Positions 1,685 through 37,544 of a DNA stretch of 64,000 nucleotides are shown here, in pieces (within the stretch, counting starts at the first letter, position 1; each line of letters opens with the position of its first letter). The stretch spans positions 3,373-67,372 of the forward strand of contig JAKPTZ010000004.1 in assembly GCA_029555025.1 (NCBI GenBank), read 5' to 3'. The notes under the pieces are model-generated. The model was not told the origin of the DNA, did no database searches, and saw only the letters and a list, made by a program, of their open reading frames with translations. Position numbers and translations under genes: made by a program. Origin of the DNA: Deltaproteobacteria bacterium. Lineage in GTDB: Bacteria; Myxococcota_A; UBA9042; DTJE01.

Positions 1685-3763
1685 ATGAAGATCTTTGAAC
1701 CTGGACAAATCCGCAACGTCGGTCTGTATGGACATCAGGGCTCTGGCAAGACTACGCTGGCTGAAGCGATGGTCTATCTGGGAAAGACTTCCAACAGGCT
1801 TTGCAGCGTCCAGGAAGGCAATTCGAACTTCGACTTTGATTCCGAAGAAATTCGCAAGCGCAGCTCGATTTCCGCCGCTGTCGGATACGCACAGTGGAAC
1901 AAGAAGCTTATTAACATCGTCGATGTCCCCGGCGACACCAATTTCGCCGCCGAATCGGTCATGGCCGTGATGGGCACCGACCTTGCGCTTATCGTGGTCA
2001 GCGCCGTGGACGGCGTGCAGGTTGGAACCGAAAAGGCCATCGAACTGCTTCTTGAAAACGAAATTCCGATGATGGTCGTGGTGACAAAGGTCGATCGCGA
2101 GCGCGCCGACTACGGCAAGATCGTGGCCGACCTTCAGAACCGTTATGGCAACGCCGTCGTTCCGATGGCCCTTCCTACCGGCAATGAATCCAATTTCAAG
2201 GGCATCGTTGACCTGGTCAACAATTGCGCCTTCACGTATGCCGATCCGATGAACGGCGCCAAGGGCGACGTCCCCGCGGCAATGGCTTCCGCCGTTTCCG
2301 ACGCCAGGGAACCCCTGGTTGAAAAGCTTGCCGAACAGGACGACGACCTGATGGAAAAGTATTTCGGCGAAGGCGAGCTTTCGACCGAAGATCTTCGCAC
2401 CGCACTGACGGTCGGGTTCAAGAAGGCCGGCGTCATCCCCGTTCTGCCAGTCAACGCGGCAACGGCCATGGGCGTCGATTTCCTGATGAACGTCATTGCA
2501 GGTCACGGCCCGTCGCCGCTCGACCGCAAGGGCCTGAAGGTTCAGAAGGGCGATGCCACGACCGATCTTGTCATCGATCCCGACGGCAAGTTCATGGCTT
2601 ACGTCTTCAAGAGCATCGTCGATTTGCAGGCCGGCCGCATCAGCGTTTTCCGCGTCGCATCCGGTTCCATCGCCCAGGATGGCCAGTTCGTGAATCTTTC
2701 CACCGGCGCCAAGGAGCGCTTCGGCAGCCTTGTCAAGCTGCTTGGAAAGAAGCAGGAACAGGTTGAAAAGGCGGTATGCGGCGACATCGTCGCCGTCGTG
2801 AAGCTGAAGGAAACCAATTCCGGCCACACGATCGGTGCCGAGGACGGCATGGGTACGCTGGTTCTGCCGCCGCTGCCGACCCCGTGCATTTCGTTCGCAG
2901 TCAAGCCGAAGAACACCAGCGATGAAGACAAGCTTTCGGCAGCAATCCAGAAGATCGTCGAGGAAGACCCGGGGCTGCGCCTGTCCCGCGACGACGAATC
3001 GAAGGAATTCCTTGTCAGCGGACTTGGCCAGGTTCACGTTCAGTCGGCAGTCGATAAGCTGAAGAACAAGTTCAACGTCGATGTCGAACTGAAGCTGCCC
3101 AGGATTCCGTACCGCGAAACGATTCGCGGCGCCGCGAAGAACGTCGAAGGAAAGCATAAGAAGCAGTCCGGCGGTCGTGGCCAGTTCGGCGTCTGCTATA
3201 TCGACATGGGACCGAACGTCCGCGGAAGCGGATTCGAGTTCGAGGATGCAATTTTCGGCGGGTCGATTCCGAAGCAGTTCATTCCGCCGATCAAGAAGGG
3301 CATGGAAGATTGCATGACCCGTGGCGTTGTCGCCGGTTACCCCGTCGTCGATATCAAGGTCAAGCTGATCGACGGAAAGTATCATGACGTCGATTCCGAC
3401 GCCCGTTCGTTCGAAATGGCCGGTTCGCGCGGCTTCAAGGCGGCCTTCAAGCTTTGCACCCCGATCATTCTGGAACCGATCATGGAGCTGACCATCGTCG
3501 TGCCCGAGGAGTATCAGGGCACGGTCATGGGCGACATCAGCAGCCGCCGCGGCAGGATCATGGGTGGCGACGCGGCCAACGGCAAGCAGATTGTCAAGGC
3601 CACGGTTCCGATGTCCGAATGTCAGACCTACGCGTCCGACCTTCGTTCGATGACGTCGGATCGCGGCTCGTTCTCGATGGTGTTTGATCACTACGAGGAA
3701 CTGCCGCCGAACCTGACCGAAAAGCTGATCGCCGAAGCGAAGCTGGAAGAAGACGAAGAATAG
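1685..3763 (+). CDS. Elongation factor G family translational GTPase (EF-G paralogue)
   Basis: 692 aa with a G-domain (GHQGSGKTT, DVPGDTNF, TKVDR) followed by EF-G domains II-V. The N-terminus differs from canonical FusA (AHIDAGKTT), so it is called as an EF-G paralogue. Confidence 0.85.
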   Translation: MKIFEPGQIRNVGLYGHQGSGKTTLAEAMVYLGKTSNRLCSVQEGNSNFDFDSEEIRKRSSISAAVGYAQWNKKLINIVDVPGDTNFAAESVMAVMGTDLALIVVSAVDGVQVGTEKAIELLLENEIPMMVVVTKVDRERADYGKIVADLQNRYGNAVVPMALPTGNESNFKGIVDLVNNCAFTYADPMNGAKGDVPAAMASAVSDAREPLVEKLAEQDDDLMEKYFGEGELSTEDLRTALTVGFKKAGVIPVLPVNAATAMGVDFLMNVIAGHGPSPLDRKGLKVQKGDATTDLVIDPDGKFMAYVFKSIVDLQAGRISVFRVASGSIAQDGQFVNLSTGAKERFGSLVKLLGKKQEQVEKAVCGDIVAVVKLKETNSGHTIGAEDGMGTLVLPPLPTPCISFAVKPKNTSDEDKLSAAIQKIVEEDPGLRLSRDDESKEFLVSGLGQVHVQSAVDKLKNKFNVDVELKLPRIPYRETIRGAAKNVEGKHKKQSGGRGQFGVCYIDMGPNVRGSGFEFEDAIFGGSIPKQFIPPIKKGMEDCMTRGVVAGYPVVDIKVKLIDGKYHDVDSDARSFEMAGSRGFKAAFKLCTPIILEPIMELTIVVPEEYQGTVMGDISSRRGRIMGGDAANGKQIVKATVPMSECQTYASDLRSMTSDRGSFSMVFDHYEELPPNLTEKLIAEAKLEEDEE

Positions 3764-3776
3764 GTCTTCTGGGGGC

Positions 3777-3800
3777 GGGCGAATTTTCATTCGCCCGTAC
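3777..3800 (+). repeat. REP-like palindromic element, type A (GGGCGAAT-TTTC-ATTCGCCC-GTAC)
   Basis: Perfect 8-bp stem with a 4-nt loop and a GTAC tail, 14 bp after the EF-G stop in a convergent intergenic region. The same motif recurs at 21.1, 21.3, 23.7 and 33.6 kb. Confidence 0.7.
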
Positions 3801-3823
3801 GGGGGACGAACCGGTTCGAAGGG

Positions 3824-4756
3824 TCATTCGTCCGCAGGGTGGCCGGGGCCGGTGCCAGCCACGTCTGAAAATTCCCTTTCCCTTTCCTTCAGGTATTGAT
3901 CATCCGGCTTAAGGGCAAGCGCCTCGCGTGCGACTTCCAGGGCCTCGGCGGGTCTGCCGCTGGCGGCAAGCGCATGGGCAAGCGTGTCAAGATATCCGGC
4001 GTTCTTGCGGCAGGTCTGCACGACCGCGCTTTCCGCCAGCTTCAGTGCGCGTCCCGGGTCGCGAAGCCCCAGGTGTGGCGTGGTTGACAGCAGCCATGCC
4101 GCGTTGTTCAGGATGGCCGCGGCCCGCGGGCCGCGGATGTGTCCGATTTCCTTCAGGGCAGCGTCATAGGCCGCCGCAAGTTCCATCGTCAGTCCGACAT
4201 CCTCCGGGGCGGCGAACTGCCTGGACTCGGCCACATCGACCTGACCAATCAAGCGGGTGATTTCCGGGTTCGGTACAAGCGGTTGATCCAGCTTGCGGCC
4301 ATAGCCGCGATTCTTCATGATGGCCTCAGCCCGGACATAGTTGCGGTAATACCACTTCCAGCTTCCCCACCATGCAAGGGCGCCGACGACAATAATGCCC
4401 CCAACGATGAAGACCTTGTAGCGTGCCCAGAACTGACGGAATGTAAGCGTCTGCTTTTCAGGCCGGCGGGCCGATCTGGCCGGCAGGGAATGTTCCGTCA
4501 CGAACCCGTCGGCCGAGCTCAGGACGATGTCGCCCGGCCTTGCGCCGCCGGCGGTGGAATCAACGCCCGCGGGCCTTCTCATCGCCTCGGATGGAGTAAC
4601 CTGCGGAACCCGGCGCCCCGCGACAGTGCTTTCCGGCGGGATCGTGCCGGAATGGCCGCAGGACGGGCAGCAGACCTGGCGTCCCGCCCAGGGTTGGGGA
4701 CATTCCAGCGGCCGCCCGCATTCATCGCATTCAAAAAAGATCCTCTGGTCGTGCAT
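3824..4756 (-). CDS. Hypothetical membrane protein with N-terminal zinc-ribbon and C-terminal TPR-like region
   Basis: CxxC..CxxC zinc-ribbon (FECDECGRP...CCPSCGHSG), one TM helix (IVGGIIVVGALAWWGSW), and TPR-like helices at the C-terminus. Confidence 0.5.
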   Translation of the reverse strand: MHDQRIFFECDECGRPLECPQPWAGRQVCCPSCGHSGTIPPESTVAGRRVPQVTPSEAMRRPAGVDSTAGGARPGDIVLSSADGFVTEHSLPARSARRPEKQTLTFRQFWARYKVFIVGGIIVVGALAWWGSWKWYYRNYVRAEAIMKNRGYGRKLDQPLVPNPEITRLIGQVDVAESRQFAAPEDVGLTMELAAAYDAALKEIGHIRGPRAAAILNNAAWLLSTTPHLGLRDPGRALKLAESAVVQTCRKNAGYLDTLAHALAASGRPAEALEVAREALALKPDDQYLKEREREFSDVAGTGPGHPADE

Positions 4757-21090: not shown

Positions 21091-21114
21091 GTACGGGCGA
21101 ATGAAAATTCGCCC
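21091..21114 (-). repeat. REP-like element type A (reverse orientation: GTAC-GGGCGAAT-GAAA-ATTCGCCC)
   Basis: Exact reverse complement of the 3777 element. It is embedded in a longer conserved unit cgatccgtacgggcgaatgaaaattcgcccg. Confidence 0.7.
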
Positions 21115-21260
21115 GTGGGGCCCTTCGCTTCGCTCAGGGATCGAGGAGCTGCCGTACGCCCCCCGTCTGACGCAGTCGTGCCTGTGGCCGGCCATGAAGT
21201 GTCCGGTTCGAGGGGCCTCACCGGAGCACTTATGGGCCGGCCCGATCCGCCCTACGATCC

Positions 21261-21284
21261 GTACGGGCGAATGAAAATTCGCCC
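21261..21284 (-). repeat. REP-like element type A (reverse orientation), second copy
   Basis: Identical 31-bp unit to the copy at 21091. It lies between the M16 peptidase gene and copA. Confidence 0.7.
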
Positions 21285-21297
21285 GCCTGCTTTCCTT

Positions 21298-21320
21298 GTA
21301 CGGGCGGATTACATCCGCCC
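21298..21320 (-). repeat. REP-like element type B (GTAC-GGGCGGAT-TAC-ATCCGCCC)
   Basis: Variant with a one-nt stem change (GGGCGGAT) and a 3-nt loop. It sits directly beside the type A copy. Confidence 0.65.
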
Positions 21321-21444
21321 GCTGCGGTCGAGCAGAATGACTTCCATCGCGCCCGATGCTTCTGTAAGTGTGGATTGACTTCCTGGTCAACAGGACAAAT
21401 TCTATCCTCGTTCATTGGGCGGAACGGCCCCGGGATGTGCAGTG

Positions 21445-23667
21445 ATGAACGGAAAGAAAATTGATCTGCCAGTAATCGGGATGTCTTGCGCACACTGCGC
21501 GGCCACCGTTGAAAAGACCCTGGTCAGGGATGTGCCCGGCGTGTCCTCTGCTGTGGTGAATCTGGCAACTGAAAGTGTCGCCGTGACATTCGACGAACGT
21601 ACTACTTCACCGCAGGCGATGGCCGACGCCGTTGCCAGGGCGGGTTTCAAGCTGGTACTGCCCAGCCTGGACGACGTCGAAACGAACGCGCGCAGGCAAA
21701 ACGAGCGAAGGATCAGGCGGGAGCTTCTGGTCGGAATTGTTTTCGCATTACCCCTGCTCGTCCTTTCAATGGGTTCCGACTTCGGCCTTCTGGGCGGGCT
21801 GTCGCATGCCCCCTGGCTGGGATGGATTTACCTGACGCTTGCAACCCCGGTACAGTTCATCACTGGAGCATCCTTTTACATCGGAGCCTATCGGGCCGTC
21901 AGGAACCGCGCCCTGGATATGGACGTGCTGGTCGCCCTGGGCTCGACCGTCGCCTATGTCTATTCCCTGGTGCTTCTGGTGACACCCGGCCACGAACACC
22001 TGTACTTTGAAACGTCCGCCATGATTGTCGTGCTGATAAAGGTCGGCAAGATGCTCGAGGCCAGATCCCGAGCGGTCGCTGCACGGTCGATCAAGAGCCT
22101 TCTTGATTCAGCGCCTGATACCGCGTCGGTTATCGGCCCGGACGGCCAGGAGCGCCCCATCGCTGTCGCCGCACTTTCCGTTGGTGATCTTGTAATGGTT
22201 CGTCCCGGCGAAAAGGTTCCGGTTGACGGAACTGTCGTTTCCGGAGCCTCGGCCGTCGATGAAAGCATGGTGACCGGCGAGCCGATTCCCGTCGATAAGG
22301 TTCCCGGGGACATTGTATTTGGCGGAACAATGAATGCGGAAGGGCTCCTTACCGTCCGTGCGACCGGTGTCGGCGCGGATTCCCTGCTGGCCCGCATAGG
22401 CGCAATGGTCGCCAGGGCCCAGGCCAGCAAGGCCCCCATCCAGCGCTTCGCCGATCGGGTTGCCGCCGTTTTCGTCCCGGTAATCCTGGTAACGGCCGCC
22501 GTCACCTTCACTTTCTGGATGCTCTGGACCGACGGCGATATCCAGCTTGCAGTAATGCGTTCAATCGCCGTGCTGGTCATCGCGTGCCCCTGTGCGATGG
22601 GACTTGCCACGCCGATGGCCGTCATGGTCGGAATGGGGAGGGGCGCCCGCGGCGGAATCCTGTTCAGGGACGCAGCCACAATGGAGATGCTTCACAAGGT
22701 CACAGCAATCGCCTTCGACAAGACCGGCACCTTGACCCAGGGCCGTCCCGAGATCGCCGCATGGGTTTCGACCCCTGGATGGGAACAGACTGGGCTTGAA
22801 CTTGCCGCCGGCGCGGAATCCGGTTCCGGTCACCCGCTTGCACAGGCCGTGGTTCGGTATGCCCGCAGCCTGGATGTCTCCGTTCCGCCACCCTCCGACT
22901 TCCAGGCGACCCCTGGCATCGGTGTTCGCGCGACGGTTTCCGAACATGCCGTCCAGGTTGGCAACCCGCGTCGTCTTGACGGCATCGCTATCCCCGACTG
23001 GATGGCCGACAGGATGCACGGGCTTGAATCCATGGGCCATTCCGTCCTGGCCGTGTTGGTTGACGGCGAAACGGTCGGTCTTTTCTTCCTGGCCGATCAG
23101 CTTCGACCGACCGCCGTCGGCGCCGTCGCCGAGATGCGGGAAATGGGACTCAACCTTTCCATGCTGACCGGCGACAACGCATCCGCTGCCGCCCGGGTCG
23201 CCGCCGCTGCTGGAATCGCGGTTCACCAGTCCGGCATGATGCCCGCCGACAAAGAGGCCGCCATCGCCGAACTTCAGCAAGGCGGCCATCGGGTCGCCAT
23301 GGTCGGCGACGGCATCAACGACACGCCCGCACTGGCGCGGGCCGATATCGGAATCGCCCCCGGCGCCGGGGCCGCCGCCGCAATCGAAACCGCCGACGTG
23401 ACACTTGTGGGCAGCGACCTGACCCTGGTTGCCCGCGCCGTGAAGCTGTCCCGCGCAACCATCCGCAAGATCCGCCAGAACCTTTTCTGGGCTTTCTTCT
23501 TCAACGTACTGTGCGTCCCAATCGCCGCGGGCGTCTTCCACGGCGTCGAATGGATGCCCGCCATGCTGCGCGACCTTAACCCCATGCTCGCCGCCACCGC
23601 CATGGCCTTTTCCGACATCATCGTCATCGGCAACAGCCTCCGCCTGAACCACGTCCGGCTGCCTTGA
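21445..23667 (+). CDS. copA: Copper-translocating P1B-type ATPase
   Basis: N-terminal HMA domain with GMSCAHC. TM CPC motif ([11 protein letters not shown]), DKTGTLT phosphorylation site, [10 protein letters not shown] hinge. The ATG at 21445 is preferred over the upstream extension. Confidence 0.9.
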
Positions 23668-23690
23668 TCTTCCCTTGGCCTTGTGCAGGC

Positions 23691-23714
23691 GGGCGAATTC
23701 TCATTCGCCCGTAC
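23691..23714 (+). repeat. REP-like element type A (GGGCGAAT-TCTC-ATTCGCCC-GTAC)
   Basis: Begins 24 bp after the copA stop. Same stem as the 3777 copy, with loop TCTC. Confidence 0.7.
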
Positions 23715-23770
23715 GGATAGCGGGCAGGGAAGCGATGGGCGCGATGGACGGCATCCTGCTCGACCGCGGC

Positions 23771-23793
23771 GGGCGGATGTAATCCGCCCGTAC
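23771..23793 (+). repeat. REP-like element type B (GGGCGGAT-GTA-ATCCGCCC-GTACAAG)
   Basis: First of two identical 32-bp units cgcggcgggcggatgtaatccgcccgtacaag. Confidence 0.7.
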
Positions 23794-23841
23794 AAGGAAG
23801 GGATGCAGGCAGGTAGAACTGGCAACTTGCAGTGCCGCGGC

Positions 23842-23911: not shown

Positions 23912-25669
23912 TTACTGGACTTCAGCGACGAAGGCGTCGGGGGTGAAGGGCTTGCCGAAGGCGGTCTTGACGAACTCGGGCCAGGGCTGTGTCATGCCGG
24001 GCTCGAAGATCTGGGCGATGATGAAGCGACCGAAGTCGGCCTTGCCGACGAAGTCGAGTTCGCTGGCGGGACCGGTGTGGGCGGCGATTTCGGACAGCTT
24101 GGCGCGCAGCATGGTCGCGAACAGTTCGCCCAGCAGATAGTTGTGGTAATAGACCGGCGCGATTGTGAAGTGCGGCTTGGCGGCCCAGTCGGCGGCCGTG
24201 CGCTCGGCCGGACGGACAAGACCCTGAAGTTCGACGACGCGGTCGTACCAGATCTTGTTAAGTTCCGGGTTGTCCGGGTTCGTGTACAGGTCCTTTTCAA
24301 AGAAGAACATGACCATCGCCCAGCGCGCGAAAATCAACTGTTCGCGCTTACGCTGCTTTGCCAGTTCCGGGGCGACCTTGTCAACCATGGCCGGGTCGGC
24401 CTTGGCGTATGCCTTCAGCCACGCCGGGTTCTTGGCCAGGGCGCCGAACAGCATCGCGATGCCCTCGGTGGTCAGGATGTGGGCCGCGTCGCGCAGGGCC
24501 CAGGGCAGCTTCGGGTTGTTGTACTTCGCGTATGCGGCGTGGCCGGCCTCGTGAAGCATCGTGTCCATCCACTCGGCGGTCGGCTTGACGTTCAGCAGCA
24601 TGCGGACGTCGCCCATGCGGTCGATGTCGGTGCAGAACGCGTGCTGGTCCTTGCCTTCGCGCTCGTAATAGTCGGAGTTGGCGATGATCTGGTCTATGGG
24701 CATGCCGATGTCGGTGTAAAACTTCTGGGCCAGCGTGACGATGTCTTCCTTTGCCATGTGCTTGTAGAAGATGTCCAGGTCAAGGTTCGGGGCGGGCGGC
24801 GCCTGCTGGAAGAACGGATTGTCGTAATGCCACGGCATCAGTTCCTCGGGCTTCATCCCGAACTTCGCGGCCAACTCGCGATCCAGTTCGCCTTTCATGT
24901 CGAAGAACGGCTTGTCGGTCTTTGCTTTCAGGTCTTCAAACAGCTTCACGACCATGTCCGGGTCGTGTTCCTGCATGCGCATGCGCATTTCCCAGTAATT
25001 GGCGTAACCCAGCAGTTTTGCCGCCTCGTTGCGCGTGCGGGCCAGGTCCAGCAGCATCGGTCCGACGACCGCGCCGACCTGCTTAAGGGCCTCCCAGGCC
25101 TGCTTGCGCTTCGCGGTGTCCGTTTCGGCGCCCAGGACGTCCAGAAGCTCGTTGTTCGAATATTTCTTTCCATCGATTTCGGCACGGTGGGTCTTGAAGG
25201 TCATTTCGATTTCCGACGACTTCTCGACCAGTTTCTTCAGCATGTCGGCCGGGAGCTGATTTTCCTTGTACGCAAGCTCGATGACCTCAAGGGCGCGGGC
25301 CGTTACCGGTTCCAGAAGGTTCCCGTGCTTGCGAAGCTGCTGCAACTTGGCGTACCGATCGGTATCCGACAGGTACTTGCGGACTTCCAGTTCCTTTGCC
25401 GCGTATTCGTCGAAGGAAGCCTTGTCGCCGGTGTTGGCGGCCTTCCAGTAGGCAAGGGCGGATTCCTTGTACAATCCGCCAACCACCGTGCCGTAGTCAT
25501 CAACGAAGTTGGACGCGACACGCTGGATTTCATCCTTGTTGACATCGGGTGCTGCCATCTTTTCGTGCTCCGGGGCCGCGGCGACCGGTGCCGGCGCGGG
25601 TGCTTCCTTTTTGCAGCCGACGGCGGCCGCGACAAACAGAACACACAATCCAAACATTACGTTCCGCAT
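23912..25669 (-). CDS. M2 family (ACE-like peptidyl-dipeptidase) zinc metallopeptidase, lipoprotein
   Basis: HEAGH zinc motif with downstream E and ACE-like length. Lipoprotein signal MRNVMFGLCVLFVAAAVGC. GGAGG RBS five nt before the ATG at 25669. Confidence 0.8.
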   Translation of the reverse strand: MRNVMFGLCVLFVAAAVGCKKEAPAPAPVAAAPEHEKMAAPDVNKDEIQRVASNFVDDYGTVVGGLYKESALAYWKAANTGDKASFDEYAAKELEVRKYLSDTDRYAKLQQLRKHGNLLEPVTARALEVIELAYKENQLPADMLKKLVEKSSEIEMTFKTHRAEIDGKKYSNNELLDVLGAETDTAKRKQAWEALKQVGAVVGPMLLDLARTRNEAAKLLGYANYWEMRMRMQEHDPDMVVKLFEDLKAKTDKPFFDMKGELDRELAAKFGMKPEELMPWHYDNPFFQQAPPAPNLDLDIFYKHMAKEDIVTLAQKFYTDIGMPIDQIIANSDYYEREGKDQHAFCTDIDRMGDVRMLLNVKPTAEWMDTMLHEAGHAAYAKYNNPKLPWALRDAAHILTTEGIAMLFGALAKNPAWLKAYAKADPAMVDKVAPELAKQRKREQLIFARWAMVMFFFEKDLYTNPDNPELNKIWYDRVVELQGLVRPAERTAADWAAKPHFTIAPVYYHNYLLGELFATMLRAKLSEIAAHTGPASELDFVGKADFGRFIIAQIFEPGMTQPWPEFVKTAFGKPFTPDAFVAEVQ

Positions 25670-25768
25670 CCTTTCCTCCAGACAGGGCGTTGACGGATCA
25701 TCATCCGGCGAAGCGATATCGTCAACCGGCAATGTGTCACTGGGGACGGCCGCTGGACAAAGAAGTTC

Positions 25769-27292
25769 TCAGGCCTGAACGGTGCAGGCGGGCAGGGCGA
25801 CTGTAACCTCGAATCCACCGTCCTTGCGGTTGGTGGCACTTACCGTTCCGCCGCAGGCAATAACCGCGGTCTTGACGATCGCAAGGCCAAGGCCCACACC
25901 GCCCGCTTCCCTGACTCGTGACTGCTCGACACGGAAGAATGGCTCAAAAAGCTGTGGGATGTCCTTTTCGGGGACTCCCGGCCCGCAGTCGGCAACTGTC
26001 ACGTACACGAATTGGCCCTTCTCCGATGCGGAAATCGCGATCGGCCCGGCATGGCCTGCGTACCTGACCGCGTTGCGGACAAGATTCGCGAAAATCCTTG
26101 AAACAAGGTCGCGATCGGCCATTACATCAATTCGTTCCGGGACATCGAAGGAAATCGCGATCGACTCGTCGGGAACCTCGCGATCGATCACTCTGGCAAT
26201 GACATCGAAGAGATTGACGCAATCGATGGTCACCCGCCCACTCACCGAATCCGAGCGGGAAAACGACAGAAGCCCGTTAACCAGTTCCGTCATCTGTTCG
26301 ACGTCATCCTTCAATTGGGCAACGCGTTGTCGCCCCTTTTCATCGACCGACTCCTCCAGAAGTCCGATGGCAAGCTGCATTCTTGCAAGGGGGGATGCAA
26401 GCTCGTGCGCGGCATCCCCAAGGAACCGCTTCTGACCGTAAATCATCAATGCAAGCCTGTCGGCCATGTTGTTGATTGCCCGACCGAGGCGGCCCAACTC
26501 GTCCGTGCGCCGGGACCCGACCCTGCTGTCAAAGACGCCGCGTGCAATCTTTTCCGTGACTTCGGTCATCTGCCGGATTGGAACTGTCAGATGACGAACC
26601 ATCGGTATCCAGAGAAGCGTCGAAATGATCATTCCAAGAACCGCAAGTATTGCCCACGGGGTTGGATCGATGAAAAGGCCGTTGCCGGTGACCGAACTTG
26701 ATCGCCCCACCAGTACAAGCTCGCGCTGGCTTCCGGGTGAAACGCGAAGACCGGGCAGCCGCATCACGGCCCAGTAGAAATTGGGCTGGGATGTCTTCAT
26801 CTTGAAGCTTGGATGCCTCTGATCAGGCAGGCCATATCCCCCCGACGAACAGAAAGGGCAGTGACCATTGGAAATCCGGCAGAACAGATCGTGGCCGGGA
26901 TGATCGCCCGGCTGCGCTTCAGTCCTGGGGTGGTTTTCATCCGTGCGAAGGCCGAACTGCTCGACCATCCTTGCGCGAAGCGCAACGGGAAGGGAAACGC
27001 GGGGCCCCGCGACCCATTCGCCGCCCACATCGAAGATCGAGACGTCAACACCATAAATGCCTGAATACCTTTCAAGCTCTTCCGACCACCGGTCAACCTG
27101 GAAGTCCGAAAGATCCTTCATCAGGCTCAGCCCCAGGATTGGAATGCGGTTCGGACTTCTGGAGTACAGGACCGAGTCCGGGCCAACCCGGAAGTCCAGG
27201 TCGAACGCGTACCAGACAATGCCACCGCCGATCAGCAGATTGACGAAAAACCAGAAAAGAATTTTTGCGAAAAGACTGATCCGTCGGGCCAT
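25769..27292 (-). CDS. Sensor histidine kinase (two TM helices, periplasmic His/Cys-rich sensor, HAMP, HisKA, HATPase_c)
   Basis: H-box AAHELASPLARMQ. N/G1/G2 boxes (LVRNAVRYAG, DCGPGV, GGVGLGLAIV). Periplasmic loop contains HPGHDLFCRISNGHCPFC. Confidence 0.85.
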   Translation of the reverse strand: MARRISLFAKILFWFFVNLLIGGGIVWYAFDLDFRVGPDSVLYSRSPNRIPILGLSLMKDLSDFQVDRWSEELERYSGIYGVDVSIFDVGGEWVAGPRVSLPVALRARMVEQFGLRTDENHPRTEAQPGDHPGHDLFCRISNGHCPFCSSGGYGLPDQRHPSFKMKTSQPNFYWAVMRLPGLRVSPGSQRELVLVGRSSSVTGNGLFIDPTPWAILAVLGMIISTLLWIPMVRHLTVPIRQMTEVTEKIARGVFDSRVGSRRTDELGRLGRAINNMADRLALMIYGQKRFLGDAAHELASPLARMQLAIGLLEESVDEKGRQRVAQLKDDVEQMTELVNGLLSFSRSDSVSGRVTIDCVNLFDVIARVIDREVPDESIAISFDVPERIDVMADRDLVSRIFANLVRNAVRYAGHAGPIAISASEKGQFVYVTVADCGPGVPEKDIPQLFEPFFRVEQSRVREAGGVGLGLAIVKTAVIACGGTVSATNRKDGGFEVTVALPACTVQA

Positions 27293-27295
27293 CCA

Positions 27296-28024
27296 TTACT
27301 CCTGCTCAGGATCAATGAACATATAGCCGATGGATCTTACAGTTTTAATGAACTTCGGACACCGTGGGTCGTCGTTCAATTTTCGTCGAAGTGAAGAAAC
27401 ATGCACGTCGATGGATCTGTCATAAACGTCGTAGTCGCGGCCCGAAACGCGATCCAGAAGCTGATCCCGGGAAAGAACGCGCCCGGGCGAGCGCGCGAGC
27501 TGGAAAAGAAGCTCGAATTCCACCGGGGTCAGATCAATCGGTTCATTGTTCAGTCGGGCCACCCTGGCAAGGTGATCGACGCGAACCGGGCCAACCTCGA
27601 CGATCTGATCGGACAGGGCTCGATTGACCGAACCGGTGCCCGCGCGGCGAATCACAGCGCGCAGCCGGGCAAGGAGTTCCCGGGTTGAAAAGGTTTTGGG
27701 CACGTAGTCGTCGGCGCCCATCTCGAGGCCGACGATGCGATCGGTCTCATCGCCGCGGGACGTGAGCATCAAAACCGGGGTATTGACCTCGCGGCGAAGC
27801 TGCTGAAGAACCTCGAACCCGTCCATTCCGGGCAGCATCACGTCAAGAATGATTGCCTTGAAGTCACCCTTCATCGCGGCATCGAGGCCGGCGGGCCCGC
27901 TGAAGGCCGCCGCCACGTCATACCCATGCGGGGCAAGATAGTCCCGGACAAGCGAACAAAGCTTCTGGTCGTCGTCGATAATCAGGATGCGCGCCGGTTT
28001 CTCCGAAAAACCTTCATTTCGCAT
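27296..28024 (-). CDS. OmpR/PhoB-family response regulator
   Basis: Receiver domain (ILIIDDD...D..MPGMDG...K) plus a winged-helix output domain (LTPVEFELL..., RSIGYMF). It is 3 bp upstream of the kinase gene, in an operon. ATG at 28024. Confidence 0.85.
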   Translation of the reverse strand: MRNEGFSEKPARILIIDDDQKLCSLVRDYLAPHGYDVAAAFSGPAGLDAAMKGDFKAIILDVMLPGMDGFEVLQQLRREVNTPVLMLTSRGDETDRIVGLEMGADDYVPKTFSTRELLARLRAVIRRAGTGSVNRALSDQIVEVGPVRVDHLARVARLNNEPIDLTPVEFELLFQLARSPGRVLSRDQLLDRVSGRDYDVYDRSIDVHVSSLRRKLNDDPRCPKFIKTVRSIGYMFIDPEQE

Positions 28025-28224
28025 GGACAACCCCTCTGCCGCAATGAGCGGACGCAACTGCGTTAGATTTTACAATACAGTGCGGCGTTAAATGGGCAAT
28101 TCCAATTACACTAAATTTACAAAAGGATTTGAAGATCAATCTGGACAAATTGAATCCGCTTTATATTATTAACGGTACCGTCGCGACGGTCGCAGGCGGT
28201 GCTCTGCTGTTGTCTGGAGGAGTG

Positions 28225-28830
28225 ATGATGAAGAAGGTTATTGCAATTGCGGCAGGTTTTGTCGCGGTGATGTTCCTGGCGTTCGCGCCCGTGGCGGCTT
28301 CGGCCCAGGGGTGTGGCGGTTGCAAGGGTAAGGGCGCCGAGATGAAGGACGGCATGGGGCCCCATGGCCATCATCATGGCCACAAGAAGGATTTTCGCTT
28401 TTGGAAGTGCCCGAAGGCGAGTGCTGAACTGAAGCTGACGCCAGAGCAGATTAAGAAGCTGGACGCGGCGGACGAGGCTGCCGGAAAGAAGATGGATGCC
28501 ATCCGCGATCAGTTGAAGACGCTCAAGGCCCAGAAGCACGACGCGATGAAGGGACACCCGGTTGACCGGGATAAGGTGATGGGCCTGGTTGCAAAGGTCA
28601 TCGACCTTAAGTCGCAGAAGATGAAGGCCAGGGCCGAGTTCAAGCTCGAGGCGTTCGGCATCCTGACCAAGGATCAGAAGCTGAAGCTGGATTCGCTTCG
28701 CGACGAGATGATGCCAAAGGGCCCCGGCTGTGATTGCGGCGCTGGTTGCGGCTGCAAGGACGGCGACAAGGGCGACGGCAAGGCTTGCAACTGCGGCTGT
28801 GGCGGCGGATGCGGGTGCGACAAGGATTGA
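28225..28830 (+). CDS. CpxP/Spy/ZraP-family periplasmic protein (LTXXQ) with His-rich and metallothionein-like Cys-rich tails
   Basis: Signal peptide MMKKVIAIAAGFVAVMFLAFAPVAASA. Two LTxxQ motifs (LTPEQIKKL, LTKDQKLKL). HGHHHGH stretch, and C-terminal CDCGAGCGCKDGDKGDGKACNCGCGGGCGC. GGAGG RBS. Confidence 0.7.
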   Translation: MMKKVIAIAAGFVAVMFLAFAPVAASAQGCGGCKGKGAEMKDGMGPHGHHHGHKKDFRFWKCPKASAELKLTPEQIKKLDAADEAAGKKMDAIRDQLKTLKAQKHDAMKGHPVDRDKVMGLVAKVIDLKSQKMKARAEFKLEAFGILTKDQKLKLDSLRDEMMPKGPGCDCGAGCGCKDGDKGDGKACNCGCGGGCGCDKD

Positions 28831-28861: not shown

Positions 28862-29995
28862 TCATTCGACCCCGGGCGCCTTCTGATAGATGATTCTTCC
28901 CGTGATCTGGATCGGGCCTGGGTTCCCGGGCATCATGTCAACATCGATGTGGTAGATTTCGGTGCCTGGATCATGCTTGTTGCCGGCCTGATCGACGTAG
29001 GCCACCCAGAACGTATATCCCTTGCCATTGTCCTCGGGATGGAAGAACGAAATCGGTGAAGCTACAAGCTGGTGGTAGAAGTATCCCCAGACCGTCCCGA
29101 ATTCGACATCGACCTGCGGCACCAGGTTCGGATCCATGGCCGCGGAATCGTCAACGAAACGCATTTCCAGCAGCATCTTCGCGTGCCTGGTCCGGTCGGC
29201 GGTCCATCCGTCCCCGACTTCGCCCGTGCTGATGTCCCAGTGGGTATTCGAGTAGTCAATCACACCCATCTTCCGAACCGTGTTGGCTCCAGGTCCATTC
29301 GAGCCGACATCCGTCATGCCGGTAAGATCCAGCGTCGAGCCGTAAGGCTGCGGCCAGTCGATCGTTCCCTTCAGCATGCCGAAGTCCGGGTGGTACCACG
29401 CCTCGCCGTTGATGACCGTGCCATCGACGTTAGTCAATCCCGTGAACCGCGTTACCCCGTTGAAAACGCCCGCCTGGGTGACAACACGCGTATCCTTCTC
29501 GATGGCGCGGTATGTCATTGTAGTTTCAAGCTGCGTGCCGTTCGCCGGATCCGATGGGTCGCCAAGATACGCGGTTCCCTTGATCGGAACCGTCTGGTCA
29601 ACGTCAAGGGGCGGGTCAAGGTTCACAAAAACCGGTGTGTCCGTGGTTCCTGATACGAACGGGAATCCGCCGTTCTCGCCCCAGTTTATTTCCCCGCCGG
29701 CGAAGGTGACGGAATCTGGCTTCAGGTCGATGAAAGCCTTGAAGTCCGTGGAAACGCCGGTGGGATCGCGTCCAACCGCCAGAACCGTGTACTCACGACC
29801 GTTCACGACAACGGTCTCGTTCTGACGAACCGTAAGCTACATGGAGCGGCCCTGACTGTCGGTCGCCGCCAGGGTCGAAACGGTGGTCGGCGACATTGGC
29901 CCGAAGGGATCCTTTGGTCCGCCGGCTTCCTCGCCACACGCGGTCAACAGCGCAACCATCGCAAGAAACGGGACAAATCCATCTGTGAACTTCAT
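28862..29995 (-). pseudogene. Lipoprotein gene interrupted by in-frame TAG (29837-29839)
   Basis: GGAGG RBS before the ATG at 29995, then the lipoprotein signal MKFTDGFVPFLAMVALLTAC. After 52 codons an in-frame TAG occurs. The same frame continues as a 324-codon open frame (314-aa ORF from GTG at 29806) to 28862. Confidence 0.5.
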
Positions 29996-30026: not shown

Positions 30027-31577
30027 TCAAAGCGGCCACGGCACCACGCCAATTGCCGCCATCTGATCGACGTCGATTATCATGATGTCATCGGGGGGAG
30101 TCTTCTTGACGGTGTCCATGGCAACCTCGATGGCCTGATCCGGTTCGCCCGACGCAACCATGGTCGTTTCGATCGGAACAATCAGATCCTCGTTGTGCCA
30201 GGTCCTGACCCCGACAAACATGTGCCCGGGAACCAGGTAAAGAACGGCCCTCAGCCCAAGTGCCTTGAACGCGGCCGCGAACACCAGCGCCCCTTCGGCG
30301 CAGTTCGCCGTCTTCTGCGCAAGCGTTTCCGACGGATACATGATGAACTGGGAAGTGGAAAAGAAGTCGTTAGGGGCGTTGACATAGTTGACGCCCAGGG
30401 CCTTCATCGCTTTGAAAATCGCGGATGCCTGCATGGTTACCACTTCGGTGTGGGTTGCAGTCCTGACCCGGGCCACGCGTGAAGTGGCCGTGAAACGCGG
30501 CCCCCTGGAATAGACAAGGTGATAATCGATATCGGCCTCGGACTTGAATTCCATCTGGCCGGCAGCAACCGCGTCGGCCTGGGCGAAATAGACCGCCGCT
30601 TCCTGGCCGGCCTTCCATGCCGCCAGATTGGCGTCGTCCATCACCTGGAACGCGACGTCGGGGTATCCCGCCCCGGGAATCTGCATCAATCGAATCTGTA
30701 CAACGTTGTTGGCGCCAGGCCTTATTGTTTCAACGGCGAAGTCGCTTGTACGCAGCGCCTCGATTTCGGTCGGTTCAAGTGGAACGTCCTGGTAACCAAC
30801 CATTGCCTTGTCCGGCATGAAATCGGATGCGGACTTCAACAGCTTCCGAATCAGGAAATCCTTGTCGTGCGGCACGACGAAGGCGGCAAGGAAGGGCGCA
30901 AGGGGATGATTCCGCTTCATCTTTGGCTGGGACTCGTCCGGCGCCTCGTTCGGGAACGACCAGAACATGCTGTTCTTGCTGGCAAGCTTGATCGGCCTGG
31001 TTTCCTCGAAAATCATCGAGTTCGCGGTCTTGATGCTGACGTTGACCGCGGACGGGGTGCTGGTGGTTATTCGCGACAGCGCCGCGAAGTCGAGCGTGGG
31101 CGTCAGACGGATCACCCGGCTCTCGCCCGGAAGAAGATTGATGGTCGATTTGCCGGCGGCGCTGAATCCGGGGATATCAACGTGGCACGAAAGGGGAACC
31201 CGGTCGCTGTCGGAAAGGTTGCGGGCCTTCACGGAAACAAGAGGAACGTCGTTCAGCGGGCCGGAGCCCAGCAGGTGTGCGATGAAAGTCGGAAAGATGT
31301 CACCAACAAGACCGGTGTAATCGACAGTCACATCGACGGCGCCATCGACGCAGCGACCGGTAACGCATGCCGCTCCACGCCTGCACTGACCGCAGGCCCC
31401 TCCGCACCCGTCCGGTCCGCACGTCCGCCCGTCGCATGACGGAATGCAACTGGCGACGGACTGGCCTGCGGTTCTGGCTGCCTCCGGGCGGGGCGACTCG
31501 CCGGACGATGCCATCGCCGGAAGAATAAACGCCACGACCAGGAACGACGCACAGAGTGCGAAACGGATGTTTTTCAT
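30027..31577 (-). CDS. Secreted hypothetical protein with N-terminal Cys-rich module (paralogous to module in the HEXXH protease)
   Basis: Signal peptide MKNIRFALCASFLVVAFILPAMA. Module CDGRTCGPDGCGGACGQCRRGAAC, similar to the protease module at 4761-6386. No catalytic motif recognised. Confidence 0.6.
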   Translation of the reverse strand: MKNIRFALCASFLVVAFILPAMASSGESPRPEAARTAGQSVASCIPSCDGRTCGPDGCGGACGQCRRGAACVTGRCVDGAVDVTVDYTGLVGDIFPTFIAHLLGSGPLNDVPLVSVKARNLSDSDRVPLSCHVDIPGFSAAGKSTINLLPGESRVIRLTPTLDFAALSRITTSTPSAVNVSIKTANSMIFEETRPIKLASKNSMFWSFPNEAPDESQPKMKRNHPLAPFLAAFVVPHDKDFLIRKLLKSASDFMPDKAMVGYQDVPLEPTEIEALRTSDFAVETIRPGANNVVQIRLMQIPGAGYPDVAFQVMDDANLAAWKAGQEAAVYFAQADAVAAGQMEFKSEADIDYHLVYSRGPRFTATSRVARVRTATHTEVVTMQASAIFKAMKALGVNYVNAPNDFFSTSQFIMYPSETLAQKTANCAEGALVFAAAFKALGLRAVLYLVPGHMFVGVRTWHNEDLIVPIETTMVASGEPDQAIEVAMDTVKKTPPDDIMIIDVDQMAAIGVVPWPL

Positions 31578-31738
31578 ACGGAAGAACCTCATGCCCATAA
31601 ATACAATCGACTTGAAAAGCGCTGATGGCAGGCCGGATTGTACCAGCCCACAGCCTGGTTGACAACAGACGGGCAGCCGGGACGACGAGGGCTTCCAGCC
31701 AATGAAAAGTGAGGGTGTGACCCCAACGAACTTCCGAC

Positions 31739-31781: not shown

Positions 31782-31860
31782 CGGGGCGTAGCGCAGCCTG
31801 GTTTAGCGCACTTGACTGGGGGTCAAGGAGTCGCTGGTTCGAATCCAGTCGCCCCGACCA
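31782..31860 (+). tRNA. tRNA-Pro (anticodon GGG), CCA encoded
   Basis: Manual cloverleaf. Acceptor CGGGGCG/CGCCCCG, U8A9, D-stem GCGC/GCGC. Anticodon stem CTTGA/TCAAG with loop CTGGGGG (anticodon GGG). T-arm GCTGG-TTCGAAT-CCAGT. Discriminator A plus CCA. Confidence 0.85.
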
Positions 31861-33552: not shown

Positions 33553-33572
33553 CGGGCGAATTTGATTGGAGC

Positions 33573-33596
33573 GGGCGAATTTTCATTCGCCCTTAC
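33573..33596 (+). repeat. REP-like element type A (GGGCGAAT-TTTC-ATTCGCCC-TTAC) flanked by two partial copies
   Basis: Located between gmk and gltX. A half copy GGGCGAAT lies at 33553-33560. A degenerate hairpin GGGCGAAT-CAT-ATTCGGCC lies at 33609-33627. Confidence 0.65.
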
Positions 33597-36606: not shown

Positions 36607-37544
36607 CGGGCTCCCCCCAAATCAGCGGGAATGTGTAAAGGATACCTGCGCGTAAGCGCGCGTCCAAGGTAAAAAGCCCCAACACCAAGCGCGGCACCAG
36701 CAAAAAGATCGATAACGTAGTGATATTGCAGATAAACTGTCGAAAAAACAAGCGCGGCGCACCAGGGCGCGACAGCAATGCCCCAGCGCCTGGAAAAGGC
36801 GAACATCGAAAGCGTCACGTAAATGGCGCCCGCAGTGTGGCCACTTGGAAAACAGTCGAATTTCAGCCCCTCGACCGAGTGGATTGAGTGCCTGATCAGG
36901 TCGGTAAGCCAGAGCCCCTCGACCCGCGTGTGCAGGCCAATCCGGGCGGCGTATTCCGGAAGATCCGCGATGATATAGGGCGACCGCGCCGGAACGAGCG
37001 TATAACCGATGAACTGGAGCCAGAAAAGGCAGGCAATACCAGTCAGATAGGCCATGAATTCGGAATAGCGCCGCCGAAACAGGAAAATGAAGCCCAGCAT
37101 GAAAAGCGGATAGTAAAGCGCATAGACGATCTGGAGGCCCTCGACGACGAAAGGATTCAGAAAATCCTGAAGAACAGCGTTGGGATTGGCGCCGAAAAAC
37201 ATCAGGCGGTCAATTTCCATCAAGGCGGCCTCGGCCCGGAACGGATTGATGAACTCAATCACGTGCCCAAGGGCCATGAAGGCGAATGGAAACGCGACGT
37301 AAAGAAACACTGCGCGGATGAACATTCTCAAGCCGAACGGTGACGGAGATCGATCGAGAATCCGGACGGCCGCCATGTAGCAGACAAGAATGGTTGCAAA
37401 TCGAATTGCCGGTTCGGTTCCCGAGGGTATCCGACCCGAAAAGGCCGCTGAGAGAACCAGGAAAAAAACCATGCAGCCCATGACTGCGAAGTCCATGATC
37501 TCAAAGCCATATCGAGGATGACTTGAAGCGGTTCCCCTTGTCAT
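36603..37544 (-). CDS. PAP2-superfamily integral membrane phosphatase
   Basis: Multiple TM helices. PAP2 signature motifs PSGH (FPSGHTAG) and SR....H...D-like YHYVIDL. Start codon uncertain; an internal ATG is also possible. Confidence 0.7.
   Translation of the reverse strand: MTRGTASSHPRYGFEIMDFAVMGCMVFFLVLSAAFSGRIPSGTEPAIRFATILVCYMAAVRILDRSPSPFGLRMFIRAVFLYVAFPFAFMALGHVIEFINPFRAEAALMEIDRLMFFGANPNAVLQDFLNPFVVEGLQIVYALYYPLFMLGFIFLFRRRYSEFMAYLTGIACLFWLQFIGYTLVPARSPYIIADLPEYAARIGLHTRVEGLWLTDLIRHSIHSVEGLKFDCFPSGHTAGAIYVTLSMFAFSRRWGIAVAPWCAALVFSTVYLQYHYVIDLFAGAALGVGAFYLGRALTRRYPLHIPADLGGAR

Follow-up and report, generated by a model that had tools for sequence, protein, structure and literature searches.

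A Cpx-like two-component system divergent from a thiol-rich, ZraP-like LTXXQ protein in an uncultured Myxococcota bacterium

We analysed a 64,000-nucleotide stretch of contig JAKPTZ010000004.1 (the 64-kb window, to which coordinates refer unless another locus is named) and found that a sensor histidine kinase (HK), an OmpR-type response regulator (RR) and a divergently encoded periplasmic protein of the LTXXQ family make up a Cpx-like system, which is not a demonstrable CpxRA orthologue and has a thiol-rich, ZraP-like accessory protein. Comparison of related loci gives good support to the view that the prime target of this two-component system (TCS) is the divergent CpxP/ZraP-family gene, reached via a predicted CpxR-type box. 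It is plausible, from their composition and conservation, that the ligand-rich tails of the accessory protein bind soft metals and, by analogy with characterised proteins, that the accessory protein feeds back on the kinase. With moderate confidence, we favour the whole of this reading: a Cpx-like TCS with a box-controlled LTXXQ protein whose tails chelate metals.

Results

Layout of the module and its host

The open reading frame (ORF) listing and a Pfam scan confirmed three genes and their domains. The HK (25769-27292, minus strand, 507 aa) has two transmembrane segments, a PAS-like periplasmic domain and HAMP, HisKA (H296) and HATPase_c domains. Directly upstream on the same strand lies the RR gene (27296-28024, 242 aa), which encodes Response_reg and Trans_reg_C domains; its ORF reaches up to TTG 28057, and the likeliest start is ATG 28024, as in the gene calls of the public contig (242 aa). 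Divergent from both is the gene for a secreted LTXXQ (Spy/CpxP/ZraP-family) protein of 200 aa (28228-28830, plus strand). Its likely start, ATG 28228, is placed six bases past GGAGGA (28216-28221), and its closest relative, the 84%-identical protein P0002, has the equivalent Met. Given these two start codons, the intergenic region therefore spans 28025-28227.

An operon of RR followed by HK, divergent from an LTXXQ gene, is also the arrangement of Escherichia coli CpxRA-CpxP. It is kept in all relatives of the kinase clade defined below and in two distant relatives (L028 and L029), and the window's LTXXQ protein (P0001) was found on seven JGI metagenome contigs with identical gene order. An earlier sequence-only reading of this DNA had described a cpxRA-cpxP-like layout, which is borne out by the Pfam domains, by the layout in relatives and by the conserved CpxR-type box. 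The genes, the domains, the position of a kinase motif and the HGHHHGH run given in that reading also stood, but its tail counts and the adjacency of copA did not.

The host is an uncultured Myxococcota bacterium close to Anaeromyxobacteraceae; the kinase cluster (P0155) is labelled at NCBI as coming from a Myxococcota metagenome-assembled genome (MAG). BamD and MlaE homologues are encoded in the window, and the host is therefore diderm, with an outer membrane and a periplasm.

A predicted CpxR-type box upstream of the LTXXQ gene

The intergenic region holds a predicted regulator-binding box, AATTACACTAAATTTACAAAA (28104-28124, plus strand), a direct repeat with an 11-bp period whose reverse complement reads GTAAA-N6-GTAAT. 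Comparison of the intergenic regions of eight lineages revealed the shared block AATTAC-N6-TTTACAAA(G), and in a nine-lineage alignment the core GCAA-N4-WWTTAC-N6-TTTACAAA is invariant while its flanks have diverged. In these nine lineages, the start of the box lies 106-123 nt ahead of the LTXXQ start codon. Of 27 loci, 24 have exactly one copy, identically placed and oriented toward the LTXXQ gene; the remaining three are one truncated locus and two loci of the distant family. Two distant kinase-family members, L028 and L029, have both a divergent LTXXQ gene and the same box. This is the sole match in the window, even when three mismatches are allowed in the 21-mer or when exact TTAC-N7-TTAC is sought. 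Two box matches with one mismatch, at 37288 and 59958, both fall within coding sequence and were set aside.

In reverse complement, the box (GTAAA-N6-GTAA(T/A)) fits the published CpxR recognition motif, GTAAA-N5-6-GTAAA (PMC9600279), and we call it a predicted CpxR-type box. In E. coli, the region between cpxR and cpxP has a TTTAC-N5-TTTAC box that is oriented alike and lies 93 nt ahead of cpxP. The two systems are alike in having a tandem TTTAC-type box directed toward the LTXXQ gene, at -93 in E. coli and at -106 to -123 here, and differ in spacing, which is N6 in nine of nine lineages here and N5 at E. coli cpxP.

A consensus scan identified a sigma-70-like promoter candidate for the LTXXQ gene (28142-28169, plus strand; TGGACA, 16 nt, TATTAT; 10 of 12 matches), which begins about 18 nt past the box and is identical in P0002. 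This spacing would be compatible with activation from the upstream site. The predicted 5' leader of the LTXXQ gene also contains a perfect 14-nt palindrome, ACCGTCGCGACGGT (28179-28192), which is not obviously conserved in relatives.

The LTXXQ protein has a CpxP/ZraP-type core

By inspection, the LTXXQ protein starts with a typical signal peptide (residues 1-26, MKKVIAIAAGFVAVMFLAFAPVAASA, with VAASA before and QG after the cleavage site). Its score against the LTXXQ Pfam model (PF07813) is 33.6 bits, above the gathering score of 24.3, whereas that against Metal_resist (PF13801), 28.5 bits, is slightly under the cutoff of 29.2, and the NCBIfam Spy equivalog NF007769 was missed (22.1 vs 174 bits). 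Two LTXXQ motifs are present, LTPEQ (residues 70-74) and LTKDQ (residues 146-150); in ZraP a single clear region of this type could be aligned. AlphaFold2 (AF2), run with 129 aligned sequences, predicted a helical hairpin at residues 57-165 (pLDDT >94), with residues 23-52 and about 166-200 at low confidence (mostly pLDDT <50).

The top Foldseek matches of this model in the PDB were Spy, CnrX (in its Ni-, Co- and Cu-bound forms), ZraP and CpxP, with weak E-values and probabilities near 1. Pairwise BLASTP against CpxP was not significant; profile-sequence comparison gave 96.4% for E. coli CpxP (E = 1.4e-9) and 97.4% for E. coli ZraP (E = 1.1e-11). ZraP was thus the best profile match as well as the best superposition (3lay: target-normalised TM-score 0.78, rmsd 2.2 Å). 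The profile comparison indicates that the core is homologous to CpxP and ZraP at that level.

An exhaustive HMMER search returned 348 relatives at E <=1e-3, nine of them at E <=1e-10. The closest subfamily consists of P0002, P0004-P0007, P0028 and a protein of L022, which show about 30-45% identity (P0002 alone, 84-85%) and have in common the block HKKDxxFWKCPKAxxELxLTxEQ. Scanning genomes and metagenomes with the subfamily profile yielded one extra MAG and duplicates of known loci only, and the Cys-rich clade therefore looks rare; in the species-level genome collection, the sole match was an uncultured Anaeromyxobacteraceae MAG.

In the P0005 lineage, a gene for a MIP-family channel (L014, 1638-2339) lies 200 nt past the Cys-rich LTXXQ gene on the same strand. 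As(III) and Sb(III) can pass through some MIP channels, so the ligand could be a metalloid.

Cys- and His-rich segments flank the core

Outside the core, the protein has two ligand-rich segments. The C-terminal tail, CDCGAGCGCKDGDKGDGKACNCGCGGGCGC (28729-28818, plus strand), contains 9 Cys and 11 Gly in 30 residues, with CxC motifs; the count of 12 Cys in 31 residues given previously applies to no such tail, since 12 is the total of the whole protein, made up of nine tail Cys, two in an N-terminal CGGC and one in FWKCPKA. Given 1.7% Cys in the long ORFs of the window, the binomial probability of 9 Cys in 30 residues is about 1e-9. The N-terminal segment, CGGCKGKGAEMKDGMGPHGHHHGH (residues 29-52; 28312-28383, plus strand), combines CGGC with the HGHHHGH run (residues 46-52, 28363-28383) that the sequence-only reading had noticed, and is followed by FWKCPKA.

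In P0002, all nine tail Cys are kept, four of them through synonymous TGT/TGC changes, while the Asp/Gly/Lys linker varies. Across residues 28-57, which include the CGGC/His segment, 14 differences are synonymous and 2 non-synonymous, and in HGHHHGH one His is replaced by Gln. The retained Cys and the synonymous excess imply that both segments are translated and constrained, and the comparison indicates that the tail Cys are under purifying selection.

All members of the closest subfamily have Gly-rich CxC/CGC modules, whether N-terminal, C-terminal or at both ends; those whose Cys were counted have 11 to 21 per protein. Among 152 representatives of the closest LTXXQ clusters, the median is 1 Cys and 15 have at least 6, others being His- or Met-rich. 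Thus, Cys-rich tails are a recurrent minority theme of the family that has become fixed in this clade. The earlier statement that soft-metal Cys chemistry is unusual, because ZraP and CpxP are His/Glu-based, holds in part: what is unusual is the degree of Cys enrichment and not the kind of chemistry, since E. coli ZraP ends in GAGMGMGYGGCGGGGHMGMGHW and 15 of the 152 relatives have at least 6 Cys. We came across no account of Cys-rich LTXXQ proteins in our literature searches.

Tandem DNA repeats of 33/39/72 nt make up the Cys-rich region of the P0004 lineage, and two close relatives have this region at different lengths. The N-terminal repeats of this type encode EGKGCxGGC units (L011, 8247-8385; L019, 4997-6028). 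The copy in the Anaeromyxobacteraceae MAG is 18 aa longer, a difference that implies repeat expansion and contraction.

Kinases with Cys-rich partners carry a Cys-bearing insert

Alignment of 120 homologues located a hypervariable low-complexity insert in the periplasmic domain of the kinase (about residues 117-157; 26822-26944, minus strand), which contains C138, C145 and C148 and sits between conserved blocks, just ahead of FKMKTSxP. The motif HPGHDLFCRISNGHCPFC, previously assigned to residues 131-148 (26849-26902), was found at that position. Of 119 full-length homologues, the seven closest kinases (51-76% identity) are the only ones with three or four Cys in the insert. We refer to them as the kinase clade; five of the seven have four. 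Patterns in the clade include C-x(1-3)-NG-x-C and CPFC (window), with CPLC or CPHC in relatives. The other 112 homologues have 0-2 periplasmic Cys, and their inserts are Pro/Gly/Arg-, Met- or His-rich.

The kinases with Cys inserts are exactly the clade with Cys-rich LTXXQ partners, as seen directly in the window, L011, L016, L019 and L022, and a Cys-rich partner is present in all eight LTXXQ lineages found for this clade. The joint occurrence of Cys gives the strongest hint of a thiophilic ligand common to sensor and accessory protein, or of contact between the two through thiols. For inserts of other composition, three informative loci showed no clear pattern between insert and tail. AF2 modelling of kinase residues 28-213 (pLDDT 78.7) gave two helices followed by a five-stranded sheet, a PAS-like arrangement in which the insert is of low confidence. 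Searching solved structures with the sensor domain sequence returned chance-level matches only, such as a TNFR Cys-rich domain (E = 0.26).

The kinase family as a whole is large. Starting from three aligned clade kinases, a search recovered members that align at 40-45% identity across 98-99% of the length; they come from MAGs of Myxococcota, Desulfobacterales and Verrucomicrobia, and JGI often labels them CpxA. E. coli CpxA and CpxR share 29% and 40% identity with the window kinase and regulator, the former in the transmitter only. The kinase is also far under the BaeS cutoff, and the regulator, whose closest solved relatives are RegX3, MtrA and BaeR, falls below every curated NCBIfam cutoff; a search of the plasmid collection with the regulator gave only generic OmpR-family matches. 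The cutoffs for heavy-metal TCSs of the CusRS/CopRS/CzcRS kind (TIGR01386, TIGR01387) were missed by both proteins (HK, 145 vs 292.55 bits; RR, 181 vs 279.2 bits).

copA and other neighbouring genes

A gene for a copA-like, Cu(I)-type P1B ATPase with an HMA domain (21415-23667, plus strand; TIGR01511, 562 bits vs a cutoff of 397) is present on the far side of an M2/M3-like zinc metallopeptidase gene (23912-25732, minus strand; Pfam Peptidase_M2 and Peptidase_M3; lipoprotein-type N-terminus). The peptidase gene separates copA from the kinase gene, so that copA is not adjacent to the module as had been claimed. L011, L016, L019 and L022 also have the M2-like peptidase gene downstream of the kinase; there it is abutted by an M16 peptidase gene, and copA is absent. 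REP-like palindromes and an 82-nt inverted repeat (21281-21362 and 23729-23810) stand on both sides of copA in the window, and the sole box-like site upstream of it carries two mismatches and falls within a REP element. The absence from relatives, the bracketing and the lack of a convincing box together indicate that copA is a lineage-specific insertion; on these comparisons, it arrived later and is not part of the conserved module. The REP-like palindrome itself, GTACGGGCGAATGAAAATTCGCCCG, occurs at five intergenic sites (3776-3800, 21091-21115, 21261-21285, 23690-23714 and 33572-33596), against a chance expectation of none.

Convergent with the LTXXQ gene is a gene for a 377-aa lipoprotein (28862-29995, minus strand), a homologue of which (46% identity) lies beside the LTXXQ gene in two other lineages. 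It has an in-frame stop (CAG to TAG, 29838-29836) in the window, L004 and L005 and is intact in L006-L009; the stop is a population polymorphism or marks a pseudogene. The whole neighbourhood, with RadC, Gmk, GltX and Ndk, is conserved as well, so we draw no functional link from the conservation of the peptidase or lipoprotein genes. Further on, a 523-aa secreted protein (30027-31598, minus strand) has a Cys-rich N-terminal stretch, CIPSCDGRTCGPDGCGGACGQCRRGAACVTGRC, and a C-terminal part with a weak match to the model of the anti-phage protein ProA (76 bits, far below the cutoff of 1500). A tRNA-Pro (GGG) gene at 31782-31860 (plus strand) is the sole RNA family found in the window.

Discussion

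We propose that the kinase senses a periplasmic signal through its PAS-like domain, which carries the Cys-bearing insert, and would then phosphorylate the OmpR-type regulator. The regulator would bind the 28104-28124 direct repeat, which reads GTAAA-N6-GTAAT in reverse complement, and from this box activate the divergent gene for the secreted helical-hairpin protein of the CpxP/ZraP family. The disordered extensions of this protein, one N-terminal with CGGC and the His run, the other C-terminal with nine Cys arranged as CxC motifs, would most likely chelate thiophilic metals, for which Cu(I), Zn, Cd or a metalloid are candidate periplasmic ligands. The LTXXQ protein may therefore serve both as a metal-buffering chaperone and as a feedback accessory of the kinase, in analogy to CpxP and ZraP. 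Gene content, folds, the conserved box, the retention of the Cys and their joint presence in kinase and partner are what the data show; regulator binding to the box, activation, metal binding and kinase feedback are the steps that we infer. ZraP is a zinc-dependent accessory protein and repressor: both its activity and the repression of zraPSR depend on zinc, and it represses only when zinc-bound. CpxP is an inhibitor that misfolded proteins can titrate (PMC10848872).

Several observations weigh against this proposal. The membership models do not place the TCS among Cpx orthologues: the kinase scores under both CpxA cutoffs (NF007007, 180 vs 486 bits; NF045900, 192 vs 800) and matches over residues 211-503 only, and the regulator is under the CpxR cutoff (NF008199, 190 vs 341 bits), with OmpR, MtrA and PhoB models doing equally well or better. 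In a Foldseek search, the sensor domain returned weak, generic PAS/Cache/GAF matches and CpxA was not among them, and hhalign against the CpxA N-terminus gave 1.9% probability. The part of the sequence-only reading that saw a plausible metal-coordinating motif in the kinase suffers from the fact that the His of this motif are not conserved even in relatives of 53-76% identity: HPGH is inserted in the window lineage alone, and other kinases have Gln, Arg or Asn where NGHC has its His. The wider Cys-based metal idea remains plausible on account of the purifying selection, the recurring Cys modules and the clade-restricted kinase Cys. Compared with Pfam at E <=10, neither the tail nor the Cys-rich parts of two relatives matched a metallothionein family, so "metallothionein-like" describes chemistry and not membership. 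Metal specificity cannot be read from the sequence, and Cys in the oxidising periplasm would form disulfides. In the distant kinase-family member L021, the place of the LTXXQ gene is taken by a divergent one (3512-4100, minus strand) whose secreted product is EF-hand-like, with linkers rich in Gly, Arg and Cys, and a related box, TTTAC-N6-TTAAC, lies upstream of this gene. Finally, the assignment of copA to the same regulon fails, as copA is not a conserved neighbour and has no convincing upstream box.

The serious rival is thiol-redox sensing, which we consider possible though improbable. Here, the signal for the kinase-loop Cys and the partner tails would be oxidants or disulfide stress, such as exposure to oxygen, and not metals; signalling would switch once the tails were oxidised or had formed a mixed disulfide with the kinase. 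The joint presence of Cys in kinase and partner fits this idea, and the four Cys of most clade kinases are compatible with two disulfides. Several clade members have CxxC in the insert, in one case as CPHC, which is the active-site motif of DsbA. Three observations speak for metal ligands instead. CxC/CGC runs in Gly-rich disorder, together with the His run and Met-rich variants (P0003, P0005 and P0006), are typical of metal ligands; some members have an odd total of Cys (P0005, 21; P0028, 11); and the characterised family members ZraP and CnrX are linked to metals.

Of the two weaker rivals, generic envelope folding stress, as in the classical Cpx response, has slightly the better standing, although we regard it as unlikely. 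The LTXXQ protein would then be a ligand-independent chaperone and inhibitor of the Spy/CpxP type, its low-complexity tails being repeat-generated appendages that evolve fast and have no specific ligand function. Tail composition is indeed highly variable across the family (Gly/Arg-, Pro- or Gln-rich), the Cys-rich region of relatives derives in part from tandem DNA repeats, periplasmic peptidase genes flank the module, and misfolded proteins are what titrates CpxP (PMC10848872). It is difficult, however, to reconcile ligand-free appendages with the retention of every tail Cys through synonymous changes while the linkers vary, with a Cys-richness that persists across a subfamily of about 30-45% identity although its position moves, or with kinase-loop Cys that appear in the clade with Cys-rich partners and nowhere else.

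A copper (or zinc) regulon in which the TCS also controls copA, as first proposed, is the least probable of the three: the ATPase gene lies 2.1 kb from the kinase stop in the window lineage, and Cpx and LTXXQ proteins have been linked to copper and zinc in enterobacteria (see in part PMC13201067 and PMC10848872), but copA is missing at the equivalent position in the four relatives, is bracketed by dispersed REP-like elements, has the peptidase gene between it and the kinase gene, has upstream only the imperfect site within a REP element, and stands near an HK and RR that score below the CusS/CopS-type and CusR/CopR-type subfamily cutoffs.

The proposed Cpx-like TCS with a metal-chelating accessory protein resembles several known systems without coinciding with any. 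It shares with CpxRA-CpxP the gene layout and the type of box, and departs from it in that E. coli CpxP has neither Cys- nor His-rich tails and the kinases are similar in the transmitter only. The closer model for the accessory protein is ZraP of E. coli and Salmonella, likewise a periplasmic LTXXQ-family protein encoded divergently from its own TCS. Mature E. coli ZraP begins with HGGHGMW, a His-Gly motif with an aromatic residue after it, and has a Gly-rich Cys/His/Met tail, an architecture identical to that of the window protein, in which the ligand set is shifted strongly to Cys (nine tail Cys vs one in ZraP). The TCSs themselves differ, as ZraR is a sigma-54 enhancer-binding protein encoded in the order zraS-zraR, whereas here an OmpR-type regulator is paired with a CpxR-like box; the Pfam scan found no Sigma54_activat domain in the window regulator, which is thus not of the ZraR type.

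The Ni/Co sensors CnrX and NccX (Metal_resist, PF13801) have the same helical-hairpin fold (Foldseek probability 1.00, target-normalised TM-score 0.66-0.70) and a role in periplasmic metal signalling, which we propose here as well. CnrX is membrane-anchored and signals to the anti-sigma factor of an extracytoplasmic function (ECF) sigma factor, and it binds metal within its helical core, unlike the Cys-rich tails envisaged here. Dense Cys and CxC motifs suited to Cu(I), Zn and Cd thiolate clusters are known from metallothioneins and Cys-lined copper storage proteins (SmtA, Csp1), and Csp1 is exported, as is the LTXXQ protein; in contrast to both, the Cys-rich segments of the latter are disordered appendages on a chaperone-type core encoded beside a TCS.

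A more far-reaching view, which we put forward only tentatively and hold to be rather unlikely, is that the kinase Cys loop and the partner Cys tails form one thiol-based sensing unit, an instance of co-evolved ligand chemistry within a large Cpx-like family. The LTXXQ chaperone might hand metal to the sensor, or be bridged to it by metal or a mixed disulfide, and the kinase would read its ligand load. This family spans Myxococcota, Desulfobacterota and other phyla, and its sensor insert varies between Pro/Gly/Arg-, Met-, His- and Cys-rich.

Taken together, the Cys-rich LTXXQ accessory is a variant of a known Cpx/Zra kind, and the points worth experiment are that the operator is conserved and that Cys occur jointly in sensor and accessory protein. 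The case of copA, a recent insertion here, would warn against inferring regulons from neighbouring metal genes. If the proposed reading is true, the Cpx/Zra logic of kinase, LTXXQ accessory and CpxR-type operator would reach well beyond Proteobacteria into Myxococcota and relatives. It would also provide a natural case of an accessory chaperone turned into a thiol-rich metal sponge while its sensor gained matching Cys, and thus a tractable system for studying how signal identity is transferred from accessory protein to kinase and how soft metals are buffered in the periplasm.

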